Below the pieces are notes generated by a model. That model was not told the DNA's origin. It was given only the letters and a program-made list of their open reading frames with translations, and did no database searches. A stretch of 12,372 bases of DNA, taken from NCBI GenBank assembly GCA_016840035.1, contig JAEOTC010000253.1, positions 1-12,372 of the forward strand, given 5' to 3'. Below, piece after piece: positions 6,509-11,465 of the stretch. Both the position numbers and the translations under genes were made by a program. This DNA comes from Candidatus Hodarchaeota archaeon. Lineage in GTDB: Archaea; Asgardarchaeota; Heimdallarchaeia; Hodarchaeales; Hodarchaeaceae. How positions within the stretch are numbered: position 1 is the first letter of the stretch; the number at the start of each line of letters is the position of its first letter.

Positions 6509-8035
6509 CTAACTATAACTGATTTCTGATTTCGTTAGTACCAAAGACGCAAGATAAAAAGTAATTGCTAAAACGATATTAGCCTGTAAACTGAAGGAGA
6601 TAACCTCTTGGGCATCAGGCGTGGAAATATATGCTGCAAGAAGCAGACTAGAGAGAATGGGAGAGAATAGAATTAGTAAATAATCTACTCCAGGAAAAAG
6701 AAATATAGAAACCAAAATTCCAACAATTTCAATCCCAAAAATTGACAGAACTGTCGACTGAAGCAAATTCTTTACAGGAAAAATACGCCAAATCAAGAGA
6801 AGGACAGCTACAAAATAAATCGCCCGGAATAATAAATTAACAGCCAGCGGAAAAAAAGTAGATGTTTCAGACCTGAAGAAAATAACGAGAGCTCCAAAAG
6901 AAAAGAGGAAGTTTAGGAGAATTGGTCTGAGAAGGCTCGTAACTTTAAGAGAGAAGTAACGATAGGCAGAAATTCGTGCAAGGATCATTTCCTCCATATT
7001 ATATTCTTTTTCCATAACAATTTTAGGAAATATCGTAAATAATCCAATAAGAAGGATCGTAATGAAATGAATACAAAATAAATAGACGACAAACATTATA
7101 GAACTGAAAGAATCATCAAAGAGGATATAAACAAGGACGTAAGGAAGACAATTCAGGAGAAGCAAGGATTGTTGCCATGTAGGGGTTTGAGTAGATGTTA
7201 GGTTTAATAATTTTAAATAGAAATTAGAACTAGTGTGAAAATTACCACTTTTCATCTGTTGACCCCCTTTCATGACCTCAATAACAGTTTTCTGACATAT
7301 ATGAGTGATAACCTTGTACACAGAAAAGAGTAGAATAAAACTGAGGATGAGTAAGACGAGAAAAGATAAGGGAAAATCAGCAAAAAGGGACCGACCAAGA
7401 AGGACAGGTGAAATAAGGAACTGAAAGTCATATAAATCCAAAATTAGAAGAACAAAAAAGACAGTGAGAATCGTAAGGTAATAAATAATCGTACGAAATA
7501 TGGAAGATGGATAATAATTTTCAGAAACTCCAAGAGTTAAGACGGAGATAAGAAACCAATCAAAAAAGAAGAGGAAAAGTAACAGAAGAAAAAAAGGACT
7601 AAAGAAGAGGGGAGAAAGCCTGTTTCCGGAAAGTTTCTCAATCAAAAATACACCTAAAAAGCCACCGAGAGGGGGAAGAATCATTAAAATGGCATTGGCA
7701 AAACTTCGAGCAAAATACAGTGTCTTAAATTGAGTAGGAGAAATAACCAAGTAATCCAACATTGAAACCTGACGTTCTCGAGAAAACAGATCAAGATTGA
7801 TCGGAAAGAAGAGAAGGAAGAGAAAAAGAAGAAGTCCAAGGAGTTTAGAAGAGACTGGAGAGAAAGAATAGGAAAAAATGAAGTACAAAAAACTTGGAAG
7901 AAGGATTAGAAAAATACAGCCATAATAACACCAGAGTAAGAGGGAGGATTTGAGACGAATTTTGATCTCATGCACCGTACAATAATGAAAGAAAGGGGAA
8001 GGTAGATTATCAAAAAACAGCTCCATAAAACTCAT
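6509..8035 (-). CDS. ABC exporter permease (about 12 TM, probably two fused ABC-2-like halves)
   Basis: Highly hydrophobic, with two similar halves (FSRERQVSMLDYLVISP and IVMEKEYNMEEMILARIS resemble the ABC-2 E-R/K-E-x-x-x-x-E-x-L loop). ATG 8035 overlaps the ATPase TGA as ATGA, suggesting translational coupling. Confidence 0.75.
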   Translation of the reverse strand: MSFMELFFDNLPSPFFHYCTVHEIKIRLKSSLLLWCYYGCIFLILLPSFLYFIFSYSFSPVSSKLLGLLLFLFLLFFPINLDLFSRERQVSMLDYLVISPTQFKTLYFARSFANAILMILPPLGGFLGVFLIEKLSGNRLSPLFFSPFFLLLLFLFFFDWFLISVLTLGVSENYYPSSIFRTIIYYLTILTVFFVLLILDLYDFQFLISPVLLGRSLFADFPLSFLVLLILSFILLFSVYKVITHICQKTVIEVMKGGQQMKSGNFHTSSNFYLKLLNLTSTQTPTWQQSLLLLNCLPYVLVYILFDDSFSSIMFVVYLFCIHFITILLIGLFTIFPKIVMEKEYNMEEMILARISAYRYFSLKVTSLLRPILLNFLFSFGALVIFFRSETSTFFPLAVNLLFRAIYFVAVLLLIWRIFPVKNLLQSTVLSIFGIEIVGILVSIFLFPGVDYLLILFSPILSSLLLAAYISTPDAQEVISFSLQANIVLAITFYLASLVLTKSEISYS

Positions 8036-8991
8036 GAGAGATAAGCCATCCATTCAACCTTGGTATGGTTCAAGAAATAGATATCTTCTAAAATAACAGG
8101 ATTGGCAACAACCGTGTGATCAGACGGAGGTACATCAGAAAACAGAGAAGAGAGGGACGAAACATATTGTTGATGACAATAAAGGTCAATACCCCTAGAA
8201 GAGGTTTGGAAATATAGAATATCATCAATGGTAGCCAAATCAGGGATAGATTCACTGGAAATATCACCCCGAATTTCTACCCGTCGGAGTTGATCAAACT
8301 TATTCTTTAATTCAGAAATCCAGAGAGGTTGATGAAGCATAACACCCTTCTCAAGAATAAACACACGATCACAAACGGCTTCAATATCTTCGAGGATATG
8401 CGAAGAGATAAGAACCGTTTTATCAAAATCATCCGAGAGATCTAAGAGGAATTTACGAACCTGAATACGAGCTAAAGGGTCCAATCCACTGGTAGGTTCA
8501 TCGAGAATCAAGAGACGAGGATCATGAATAAGTGTAACCCCTAAACCTACCTTGTGTAACATCCCCTTGGAGAGTGATCTGATCGGTACATGTAAATACG
8601 AATCGATATCCAATGCTTTTATGACTCGCTCGCGCAAATCCGCTTGATCCACACGAGTATGATCACGGAGACGAGAGAAAAACTCCAAAACTTCAATCAC
8701 AGAGAAGTTGGGATAAAACGAGAAGCGTTCAGGAAGATAACCAATCAATTGCTTAATTTGAGTAGCCTCACGACTGGGATTTAGGCCGAAAATCTCAATA
8801 ATACCATAAGAAGGAAGAAGAAGGGTAGAAAGAATCCGAATAAGGGTCGTTTTACCCGCACCATTGTTACCCAGAATACCAACTGTCTCTCCCTCAGCGA
8901 CAGTAAGGTTAATGTTGTCTAAAACCACTTTATCTGGATAGTATATCCTTTTTATCTTTTCAAGATACACAGGTAAGGATTCATCAGACAT
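8032..8991 (-). CDS. ABC transporter ATP-binding protein (ABC-2/DrrA/CcmA-like exporter ATPase)
   Basis: Walker A GNNGAGKTT, signature LSKGM, Walker B/D-loop LLILDEPTSGLDP, H-loop ISSH. SD AAGGAG at 9001-9006. Confidence 0.95.
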   Translation of the reverse strand: MSDESLPVYLEKIKRIYYPDKVVLDNINLTVAEGETVGILGNNGAGKTTLIRILSTLLLPSYGIIEIFGLNPSREATQIKQLIGYLPERFSFYPNFSVIEVLEFFSRLRDHTRVDQADLRERVIKALDIDSYLHVPIRSLSKGMLHKVGLGVTLIHDPRLLILDEPTSGLDPLARIQVRKFLLDLSDDFDKTVLISSHILEDIEAVCDRVFILEKGVMLHQPLWISELKNKFDQLRRVEIRGDISSESIPDLATIDDILYFQTSSRGIDLYCHQQYVSSLSSLFSDVPPSDHTVVANPVILEDIYFLNHTKVEWMAYLS

Positions 8992-9035: not shown

Positions 9036-10550
9036 TTAAACCTCTCGGCCGAGAATTACAAAAACAATAAACCGCAAAATGAATAATCCAATGGATAACA
9101 GCAAAATAAAGATCCAAAAAAACCTACTCGAAACGGGGGTTTTCGTAAGAAAATCTGCTGTCACTCGCTGATCCTTATCTAAATCAAAGCTTACAAATTC
9201 TAACTCTTGTTGGTTTACTAGGAGTTGATAATAGTTTGCAAGTATCAACGCCAAAATAACTATACCCATACCGATACCCAGAACGTTGAACAAGTCAGCA
9301 AATACACAACAAAGGCCAATTACAAGCCAATTCCGATCAAACGTAAGATTATGACTATCAGTTCGAGTTCTGTTTAACAGCGGAGGAATTCGTTTACTAA
9401 AAAGTCTGTATAAACCTAAAAATACAGCTGTATAGACGATTCCATGCGAAAGTACTGTTAATGGGTCAGCAAATAAACCATCAAGGATATGAAAACGTGG
9501 AGAGCAGAAGTAAGCTAAACCCCCAGTAGGGACGTATTGCTCCGCTGCAGTATTCAATTGGTAAGTTCCCAATATCCATACAAAGATTGAGGAGGAATTT
9601 TCCCTTCCACTCGAATTCCAAACAACTTGACTAAGAAAACGGATAAGAGCGAAGAAAGTTGTCGTTAAAAGGATTGATAGCAAGGGGGAAGAGAGAGAAA
9701 CCTTGTGAGATTCTACATCGTCAAAATTATTACTATTAGATATCTGGAGCGACAAAAATGTCACCAAAAGGAAAATACCAATTGCAAACCATACAGAAAG
9801 AAGTGATAAATGAGGAAGGTTTAAGCTATGAGAACGAACGGGACTATAACGAAAGAATAAGAAGCCAAAAGCATTAAGACCCTCTTCTCCGATACAATAA
9901 AGAATAGCTAAAAAAATTCCCCGTGCTGATGTAAGTTCACCCGGTCCTTCTAAAATATTGTTGGAAGCAAGAAACGCCTGCATAATTTGCACCCAAATCC
10001 CACTTGCCAGAAAAATCGATATTCCCGAGCCTAATCCCCAACCTTTATTAATAAATTCATTTAAATAGATGATAATAATACCTGCTATAATCAATTGTCC
10101 GACAATTGAAAATTGAGTAAATATATCTAAATCTGTACCATATAATCCTGAAAGGATTAAAATCAAGGCCATAATTACAGTAAAAACGATACCCAAGAAA
10201 ATTCTGATACGATTGTACCGTTTAAGCTCATCAGGATGGGTAGGATCAAATTGGTAAAGATTGGTTCTTAAAAAAATGTGAAATACAAATCCAGCAGTTA
10301 AAAGTGGTAGAATCCCTAATTCGGTAGAAGTACCATGCTTAGAAGCCCCAATAATACGAATAATGCCATAAGGATCTGCTTCGCCGAGATTAGCCCCTAT
10401 TAGAGGAATGACGGCTAGCAGAGAGTATACAATGATAACCCCTAGAGTAATAAAGACCTTAACAGAAAAATTATCTTTATTAAGCGAGTTTATAAGCATT
10501 TTTTTAAGTAAGAAGCTGTTGTTTTCTTTTCCCAGATTTTCTTCCACCAT
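9036..10550 (-). CDS. secY: Divergent SecY/Sec61alpha paralogue with reduced cytosolic loops and an extra C-terminal TM helix
   Basis: Motifs in SecY order: IPLIG; plug DPYGIIRIIGASKHGT; ELGILPLLTAG; GLYG; QLIIAGIIIIYLNEFINKGWGLGSGISIF; PTGGLAYFCSP; DP...IVY; FADLFNVLGIGMGIVI...YYQ. ATG 10550 is preferred (GAGG 6 nt upstream). The symbol denotes homology only; this is probably not the housekeeping copy. Confidence 0.9.
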   Translation of the reverse strand: MVEENLGKENNSFLLKKMLINSLNKDNFSVKVFITLGVIIVYSLLAVIPLIGANLGEADPYGIIRIIGASKHGTSTELGILPLLTAGFVFHIFLRTNLYQFDPTHPDELKRYNRIRIFLGIVFTVIMALILILSGLYGTDLDIFTQFSIVGQLIIAGIIIIYLNEFINKGWGLGSGISIFLASGIWVQIMQAFLASNNILEGPGELTSARGIFLAILYCIGEEGLNAFGFLFFRYSPVRSHSLNLPHLSLLSVWFAIGIFLLVTFLSLQISNSNNFDDVESHKVSLSSPLLSILLTTTFFALIRFLSQVVWNSSGRENSSSIFVWILGTYQLNTAAEQYVPTGGLAYFCSPRFHILDGLFADPLTVLSHGIVYTAVFLGLYRLFSKRIPPLLNRTRTDSHNLTFDRNWLVIGLCCVFADLFNVLGIGMGIVILALILANYYQLLVNQQELEFVSFDLDKDQRVTADFLTKTPVSSRFFWIFILLLSIGLFILRFIVFVILGREV

Positions 10551-10628
10551 TCTCATCCTCTCAGCCTAGAAATTGCAGTCAAATTTCAAAAGTATTCTCT
10601 CCAATCTTGATAAGAAAGTGATTCTAAG

Positions 10629-10703: not shown

Positions 10704-11465
10704 CTAAGTGAGTAAATGCTTGAAACGAGGGGAAATCGTTAATCCTCTTCCATTTTGCTCAATAACATCATGAGTCCTTAAAATTTTTACATAATATGAC
10801 AGTAACGATTTGTGGATCCCTAAAGTTATACAGAGATCCTTTTGAAAAACCATTGTAGAACTTCCATGCAAACATTGAAGGATTTCTGCAATATTTTGGT
10901 TCTGAAGTAACGAAAATAATAATCGAGCATCTTCTGACCAATATTGGGACGTATCAAAATAATGGTTTGACTTTCCAAATTTTACCATTTCAATTTTACC
11001 TTCTTGTTCAAGAATACGCAACCAATATTGCACTGAACCCATGGCGACATTTGAAAGACGAATTATTCCACGAAGAGATACTCCTGGATGGTTTAATATG
11101 GTTGTTGAAATTACTTCACGAGTATCACGAGTTTCTTTCCATTCTTGAGACGAATGGATCATCTTATACAAGTTATAGACAACTGGAGGAATAAAAAATG
11201 CTGAAAGATGAATCCTATCAACTACGTGAGTCGACAAGCTACAAAAAGGATCAGATAGATCAGGGTTTAGGAAAAAGGACGATGCTACCATATCGGGAAT
11301 AACTACTTCGCCTTGATAGGAAGCCACCTGCTGGGGAACAGTATTCAGTGGTGAATTTCCAAATACGGCGAAGATAGAGAGAACTAGAAGTAGAACGGCT
11401 ATGATACCTCTTGCATGTAACCAAGTGATACGGAAGCGAATGAGTAATCCCCTCTTGATGATAAT
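10704..11465 (-). CDS. Double winged-helix transcriptional regulator (COG3398/ArsR-MarR-like) with a probable N-terminal TM segment; start uncertain
   Basis: HTH1: TREVISTTILNHPGVSLRGIIRLSNVAMGSVQYWLRILEQEGKI. HTH2: QKDLCITLGIHKSLLSYYVKILRTHDVI. The frame stays open upstream of the track's GTG 11327 to 11480 and encodes RGIIAVLLLVLSIFAFVFG. SD AAGGAG precedes in-frame ATC 11468 and ATT 11465. Confidence 0.75.
   Translation of the reverse strand: MIIKRGLLIRFRITWLHARGIIAVLLLVLSIFAVFGNSPLNTVPQQVASYQGEVVIPDMVASSFFLNPDLSDPFCSLSTHVVDRIHLSAFFIPPVVYNLYKMIHSSQEWKETRDTREVISTTILNHPGVSLRGIIRLSNVAMGSVQYWLRILEQEGKIEMVKFGKSNHYFDTSQYWSEDARLLFSLLQNQNIAEILQCLHGSSTMVFQKDLCITLGIHKSLLSYYVKILRTHDVIEQNGRGLTISPRFKHLLT

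Follow-up and report, generated by a model that had tools for sequence, protein, structure and literature searches.

The window analysed here is a stretch of 12,372 nt (contig JAEOTC010000253.1) from the Candidatus Hodarchaeota archaeon assembly GCA_016840035.1, which amounts to 4.3 Mb and is 87% complete. It carries on its reverse strand a gene whose 506-aa product combines a divergent SecY/Sec61alpha body with an additional, eleventh transmembrane (TM) helix located after TM10. As judged by sequence comparison, the last 21-24 residues of this tail very probably share their ancestry with the C-terminal half of the TM found in free SecE (Sec61gamma) of the same subclade. The broader, joint claim of a natural fusion between SecY and SecE (Sec61 alpha-gamma), in which a SecE-derived TM11 would clamp the channel in cis, is held to be likely, with less assurance than the homology itself. 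The gene and its parts are positioned as follows.

9036..10556, (-) strand: whole fused gene, a divergent SecY/Sec61alpha paralog with a probably SecE-derived C-terminal helix, 506 aa, stop codon at 9036-9038.
9216..10556, (-) strand: SecY body, aa 1-447, with TM1-TM10, putative plug and pore ring.
9129..9215, (-) strand: polar linker, aa 448-476, which includes a conserved F-x-x-F-D (aa 454-458, DNA 9183-9197).
9051..9128, (-) strand: eleventh TM helix, aa 477-502, from the AlphaFold2 helix and hydropathy.
9039..9101, (-) strand: putative SecE-homologous segment, aa 486-506, corresponding to the second half of TM11 and its extracellular end, ...RFIVFVILGREV.

Translation of the open reading frame (ORF) at 9036-10556(-) gives 506 aa with no internal stop or frameshift and terminates with TAA (9036-9038). 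At the C-terminus of the product, TM10 (...ILANYYQLL) is followed by a polar stretch of ca. 30 residues and then by ...TKTPVSSRFFWIFILLLSIGLFILRFIVFVILGREV (given also as ...SSRFFWIFILLLSIGLFILRFIVFVILGREV), DNA positions 9036-9212 corresponding to aa 449-506 and the stop. Segment 484-502 is the top Kyte-Doolittle 19-mer of the whole protein (2.97), and aa 477-502 form a single helix in the AlphaFold2 model with a predicted local distance difference test score (pLDDT) of 80-86, the linker at aa 448-476 having a pLDDT of 55-61. Translation, hydropathy and the modelled helix agree in this respect with the initial annotation of the region, which had placed a polar linker and an extra hydrophobic helix after TM10 and had considered the helix as foreign to normal SecY. 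Indeed, the canonical SecY of this genome and of its relatives ends ca. 20 residues past TM10 without such a helix, and the solved SecY/Sec61alpha chains cover the model only to residues ~447-480, which makes TM11 an addition to the SecY fold. Conservation of the tail among orthologues, which the initial annotation had proposed to look at, holds in all ten aligned members of the family, with F454, F457, D458, L486 and F492 being invariant (10/10).

The free SecE/Sec61gamma of this genome is a 69-aa protein whose gene, on contig C293 (L005:1456-1662), is flanked by a gene for an RNA-polymerase subunit and by a 160-aa ORF. It was detected by TIGR00327 with 43.5 bits, and its similarity to human Sec61gamma (E 1.2e-5) and to M. 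jannaschii SecE (E 3.7e-4) identifies it as a bona fide Sec61gamma. This protein ends in ...FVIRFIIFVILGREL (also shown as ...VIRFIIFVILGREL and ...VLGLVAFVIRFIIFVILGREL), to be compared with ...FILRFIVFVILGREV (or ...SIGLFILRFIVFVILGREV) for the tail encoded in the window and with ...LMGLGIFFLRFIVFVILGREL for that of P0006, another member of the family. When compared to this SecE by BLASTP, the window tail displayed 11/14 identities (E 9e-7) and the P0006 tail 14/21 (E 7e-8); an ungapped 11/12 match lies at the extreme C-terminus of both tail and SecE, at equal distance from the stop. A tail profile (A2) built from ten tails was searched with hmmsearch against the 33,317 six-frame ORFs of at least 40 aa of the genome and, after the three tails themselves, returned SecE as the top match (E 8.4e-5), columns 41-61 of the profile being aligned with the last 21 residues of SecE. 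The motif RF[ILVM][ILVMT]F[VTS][IL]LGR, as well as the shorter F[VTS][IL]LGR[EDV], has two occurrences in 2.97 million six-frame residues, and both are found at an extreme C-terminus, one in the 506-aa fused protein and the other in the free SecE.

Comparison by hhalign between the tails and SecE sequences aligned across the class gave P 1.6e-4 over 24 columns. The mean identity of the tails is 9-10.5 of 21 residues with SecE of the subclade that comprises this genome (G000), G014, G002, G020 and G004, 3-7 of 21 with the other SecE of the genus, and 3-4.6 of 21 with those of other Heimdall families. The SecE/Sec61gamma origin put forward in the initial annotation is thus borne out by the last 12-21 residues, which are nearly identical to those of the SecE of this organism, and not by the weak resemblance to human Sec61gamma that it had pointed to. 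The register it had drawn to human Sec61gamma (P-x4-F / IG) is not supported, being ca. 6 residues off the one set by the C-terminal match. Moreover, the Pro of that hinge register occurs only in some family members, so that retention of the hinge/KP motif and of the amphipathic helix is not supported.

No full-length family member lacks the tail. When the tail alone was searched against long proteins, 16 clusters were returned, all SecY-like and all from Hodarchaeales or 'Heimdallarchaeota B3', the assemblies behind them (JGI, ENA, NCBI and Logan) being independent of one another. For G014 versus G002, the sole pair with unsaturated synonymous sites, the ratio of non-synonymous to synonymous substitution rates (dN/dS) amounted to 0.41 (body), 0.35 (tail) and 0.27 (TM11), and the last of these values is derived from small counts (5 synonymous and 5 non-synonymous). 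The window tail is identical to the secE product at 12/21 aa and agrees with secE at 7/21 third codon positions; across the tails, agreement at third positions over the 21 shared codons is 7-10. Such scrambled third positions indicate that the likeness has been kept at the protein level by selection, and they rule out both a chimeric assembly of secE and tail and recent gene conversion between them. On these sequence data, the tail is under purifying selection and the predicted SecY-SecE fusion is old.

The body of the protein was recognised by Pfam SecY (PF00344) with 57.3 bits against a cut-off of 32.2, in its N-terminal half only (profile positions 4-139 of 306). In a phmmer comparison with human Sec61alpha, the 506-aa protein gave E 2.7e-31, and the body aligns with human residues 25-378 and 426-466. 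An AlphaFold2 model computed from an 82-sequence alignment had a mean pLDDT of 84.8 and a predicted template-modelling score (pTM) of 0.87, and was matched to Sec61alpha by Foldseek with E 2.9e-16. With VIA-align, it was superimposed on rabbit Sec61alpha (7tm3_1; Z 35.1, rmsd 2.9 over 414 residues) and on M. jannaschii SecY (1rh5_A; Z 34.7, rmsd 3.2 over 376 residues); the matches from both programs are to single SecY/Sec61alpha chains only. As modelled, the body is a 10-TM pseudo-symmetric SecY/Sec61alpha fold. The positions that we take to form the pore ring, after human Sec61alpha numbering, correspond to I82, L86, I179, L183, L296 and I434, all six of which are aliphatic, and the TM5 motif GWGLGSGIS is invariant across the fused family. 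The plug profile gave 16.1 bits, under its cut-off of 22.1. At the lateral gate, alignment with human Sec61alpha places Leu304 (9645-9647) at N300 and Thr87 (10296-10298) at T86, the former exchange making the polar cluster of the gate partly hydrophobic in this paralog.

The main departures from SecY within the body concern two loops, which in SecY/Sec61 are the cytosolic docking sites for the ribosome (and for SecA, of which we know no example in archaea).

9687..9731, (-) strand: loop 6/7 remnant, aa 276-290, short, acidic and without the basic hairpin.
9321..9392, (-) strand: loop 8/9 remnant, aa 389-412, ~26-29 residues under the canonical length.

In loop 6/7 (columns 285-300 of alignment A1), which maps to Sec61alpha 259-285, the canonical RIEIPISYAQYKGIRSTYPIKLLY is exchanged for a shorter polar stretch that appears as a loop in the AlphaFold2 model (pLDDT ~55). 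In loop 8/9 (A1 columns 425-470), a 29-column gap occurs in all fused members and the conserved GxxP...GxRR segment is missing from the family; between the aligned blocks, 22 residues are found here versus 48 in human Sec61alpha. With loop 8/9 mostly gone and loop 6/7 replaced, the 506-aa protein is counted, on alignment grounds, as a divergent paralog and not as an orthologue of the housekeeping SecY encoded on contig C71.

The genome contains this canonical SecY (C71, 216 bits), three fused copies, one free SecE and one free Sec61beta (C112). The two fused copies located outside the window are the following.

L036:3001-4485, (+) strand: fused paralog on contig C289, 495 aa, next to an SPFH/Band 7 gene.
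L002:1282-2787, (+) strand: fused paralog on contig C277, with a degenerate C-terminal motif.

In the C289 copy, Pfam SecY was not found at E<=0.01, the protein being too diverged. The fused tail was detected in 3 of 83 genomes of the class, all three belonging to one genus, with three copies in G000, two in G014 and one in G002. A second tail-like match in G014 (G014:C51:2-100, 52 bits) is located at a contig start and is probably the terminal part of a further fused paralog that the contig truncates. Every genome examined has one free SecE and, where found, one Sec61beta.

In a SecY tree built without the tail columns, and in which the fused group has long branches, the ten fused sequences form one clade with a Shimodaira-Hasegawa-like approximate likelihood ratio test (SH-aLRT) value of 100. 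Its sister group is composed of tail-less divergent paralogs of the P0028 type together with that of G017 (SH-aLRT 99), and the two groups together join the tree at the canonical SecY of their own genus. As placed by this tree, the fused paralogs arose by duplication within one Hodarchaeales genus. In the approximately unbiased (AU) test, placement of the group inside the subclade with the matching SecE motif was not rejected (p 0.42), an origin at the base of the genus and one within the subclade not being separable by this test. The secE and secY genes are not adjacent in the examined genomes (ca. 27 kb apart in the closed genome G010) and the fusion therefore required a moved copy of a secE fragment.

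Other unusual SecY sequences were encountered. The tail-less divergent forms (L071 in G017, L072 in G001, and P0028) end in ...FGILEFYL, with an in-frame TAG in the G001 copy. A second canonical-looking SecY having an intact loop 8/9 and a normal C-terminus occurs at L066, L067, L068, L069 and L019 (G010, G012, G008, G015 and G018, respectively); since many genomes of the genus possess such a copy, SecY duplication is common there, independently of the fusion. Finally, an odd SecY of 484 aa (L074), located on a 2.1-kb contig of G006 (C312), branches outside all Heimdall families and is probably a contamination of that bin. In public records, the fused proteins are named either 'hypothetical protein' or 'preprotein translocase subunit SecY'. 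Annotators should note that proteins so labelled are neither housekeeping SecY nor pseudogenes.

With regard to mechanism, the C-terminus of SecY is cytosolic, so that TM11 would run from the cytosol to the outside (N-in, C-out) as the SecE TM does. It would then pack in cis at the place where the SecE TM clamps the two SecY halves, and would provide the paralog with a clamp of its own, independent of the single housekeeping SecE. The main argument for this arrangement is that the same ...RFIxFVILGRE residues are constrained in SecE and in the tails, which suggests a shared contact surface. A complex prediction of body plus tail gave an ipSAE of 0.34, the best of three controls scoring 0.00; at least 64% of contacts agreed between runs, and the partner pLDDT was at least 50. 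This outcome was graded as weak support: in the calibration, at scores of <=0.60, the mark was reached by only 7 of the 80 solved complexes and by both passing mismatched pairs. Because custom alignments were used, that calibration holds only roughly, and the pass may reflect likeness to solved SecYE complexes. The loss of the ribosome-docking loops further suggests a channel operating without a docked ribosome, which might be a separately regulated, substrate-specialised or post-translational conduit or an insertase; from loop loss, we see about even chances for a ribosome-independent function. The complete picture of a self-contained, single-chain Sec61 alpha-gamma channel, ribosome-free, serving special substrates or quality control as a conduit or insertase, present in three copies in one genome and often next to a wHTH gene, is offered tentatively, as a possibility that we would lean against when all its parts are taken together.

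Several observations weigh against a clamping, SecE-derived TM11. The demonstrable homology covers 21-24 residues only; the SecE amphipathic helix and its KKPDRSEV hinge have no alignable counterpart in the tails, the hydrophobic span of which is ca. 6 residues shorter than the SecE TM. In some members, the Pro is 6 residues out of register, and the conserved motif found in the linker, F-x-x-F-D, is a different one. Of the three copies of this genome, the two on C289 and C277 have degenerate C-terminal motifs (...LRFVLFTSEIRRTF and ...SVFFQIFFN). Profile searches of several kinds failed to connect the tails with SecE: Pfam assigned no family to aa 440-506 at E<=0.1, TIGR00327 found the free SecE but none of the three tails in the genome, and PF00584 had zero matches there, the control also missing Haloferax and Sulfolobus. 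Against chains of the PDB, the tail profile gave chance TM matches only (E>=0.08), with no SecE/Sec61gamma chain. In addition, its second non-self match in the genome (E 0.001) is a 43-aa ORF on C217, which was rejected as a SecE relative, being a spurious, off-frame stretch inside an ABC permease gene; E-values are consequently soft for hydrophobic segments. Similarly, phmmer with the single SecE against the genome ORFs, with and without --max, recovered only SecE itself and did not reach the tails, and the tail profile found nothing at E<=10 among the short proteins of a set of 5.8 billion proteins, in which a 23-bit match cannot reach significance. The profile check with PF00584 and PF03911 that the initial annotation had suggested for the tail is therefore negative for both families (in the genome scan, PF03911 detected only the free Sec61beta gene), and this is attributed to the insensitivity of generic profiles to a lineage-specific segment of 21-24 residues and not to non-homology.

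The missing family matches and the soft E-values would fit a generic hydrophobic extension that resembles SecE by convergence or chance. Such an explanation is improbable, as the ungapped 11/12 match falls at the same distance from the stop, the motif occurs nowhere else among the six-frame residues, SecE is the top non-self match among all 33,317 ORFs, and the likeness is graded, being highest to the SecE of the subclade that bears the fusion. Derivation from Sec61beta, the alternative considered in the initial annotation, would be topologically feasible since Sec61beta is tail-anchored with a cytosolic N-terminus. It is nevertheless very improbable and was rejected at the sequence level: no BLASTP alignment with the genome's own Sec61beta was obtained (E<=100), hhalign against 31 Heimdall Sec61beta sequences gave P 0.03 and a probability of 1.6% without overlap of the TM, and PF03911 matches the free gene only. 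Hardly more credible is an artefact, whether a lost stop or read-through, an assembly chimera or a decaying pseudogene. The fast evolution of the body (dN/dS 0.41, long branches) and the unusual amino-acid composition of the window copy might suggest it, but the tail is alignable in the 16 clusters from independent assemblies, is under purifying selection and contains neither frameshift nor stop. Loss of a stop codon, which the initial annotation had named as a possible source of the tail, is excluded by this conservation and by an ORF end shared with relatives. There is finally the possibility, unlikely though less so than the preceding ones, that TM11 derives from SecE and acts as an extra peripheral anchor or oligomerisation helix in a paralog that still recruits free SecE and beta. 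Retention of only the C-terminal half of the SecE TM, without a recognisable amphipathic clamp helix and hinge, would be in agreement with such a role, as would the presence in the genome of one free SecE and one Sec61beta. On the other hand, four SecY-type channels would then depend on this single free SecE, and, given the known SecYE-beta topology, the linker of 30 residues is able to span the distance between the cytosolic end of TM10 and the SecE site. Above all, selection on ...RFIxFVILGRE in both SecE and the tails, despite scrambled synonymous sites, finds its simplest explanation in a contact surface common to both. A helix that clamps in cis, as SecE does in trans, thus remains the reading that we favour.

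The fused gene of the window is surrounded by the following CDS, and regulator genes of the same type as its upstream neighbour were found at other fused loci.

10704..11327, (-) strand: winged-helix (wHTH) regulator (HTH_HVO_0163_N), upstream, Pfam PF24266 with E 1.9e-10.
8032-8991, (-) strand: ABC ATPase, downstream, 319 aa, ABC_tran with E 1.3e-26, starting 44 nt past the stop of the fused gene.
6509-8053, (-) strand: ~12-TM protein, 514 aa, 12 hydrophobic segments and no Pfam match, overlapping the ABC ATPase gene.
L007:385-1203; L008:3240-4061; L111:5184-5762; L113:5095-5841: wHTH regulator genes at other loci.

At 5 of the 8 distinct loci, namely those of the window, G014, G002, P0004 and P0009, the immediate upstream neighbour of the fused paralog is an HTH_HVO_0163_N gene; four of these genes are co-oriented with the fused paralog and one, at the P0009 loci, is divergent. 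This circumstantial association suggests a dedicated, separate transcriptional control. No other conserved neighbour was found at the fused loci. Linkage with the ABC transporter was discarded as a feature of the family because it is adjacent in the window only and not at the seven other loci.

To our knowledge, SecY and SecE are universally separate, essential subunits, and the literature searched yielded no account of these fused paralogs or of any natural fusion between SecY and SecE (Sec61 alpha-gamma). When compared to the archaeal SecYE-beta and mammalian Sec61 heterotrimers (1RHZ/1RH5; mammalian Sec61), the fused paralog shares the 10-TM fold, the TM5 motif and the aliphatic residues of the pore ring, together with a putative plug, and its extra helix is very probably homologous to the gamma/SecE TM. 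It differs in that alpha and gamma would be contained in one polypeptide in which the SecE amphipathic helix and hinge are unrecognisable, in that loop 8/9 is mostly deleted and loop 6/7 replaced, and in the location of its gene, which lies outside the ribosomal-protein cluster and often beside a wHTH gene. The closest relatives, the tail-less divergent paralogs (P0028 type, G017, G001), are likewise fast-evolving and are sister to the fused family on the SecY tree, but they are devoid of the SecE-derived helix and keep a long though diverged loop 8/9.

The joining of translocon subunits in one chain recalls the single-chain forms of SecDF and engineered covalent SecY constructs; known single-chain Sec fusions involve SecD/SecF or are laboratory constructs. 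A naturally occurring covalent fusion would demonstrate that SecY can obtain its clamp helix in cis, and the fused paralog would give structural and biophysical studies a single-chain translocon that is already to hand. As a diverged SecY paralog that exists beside the housekeeping channel, presumably for a subset of substrates or conditions, it also resembles yeast Ssh1 and the bacterial SecY2 of the SecA2-SecY2 system. The partners of SecY2 are SecA2 and the Asp proteins, while Ssh1 has its own beta (Sbh2), shares Sss1 and keeps ribosome binding; unlike the paralog described here, neither is known to be fused to SecE. The combination of fusion, loss of the ribosome-docking loops and paralog expansion makes the repurposing of Sec61-type channels from co-translational translocation directly testable. 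Hodarchaeales, an order of Asgard Heimdallarchaeia, are among the closest known archaeal relatives of eukaryotes and belong to the lineage used to reconstruct their archaeal ancestor. If the proposed interpretation is true, a ribosome-free alpha-gamma channel in this order would be an archaeal counterpart to the way in which channels of the Sec61 family have diversified in eukaryotes.

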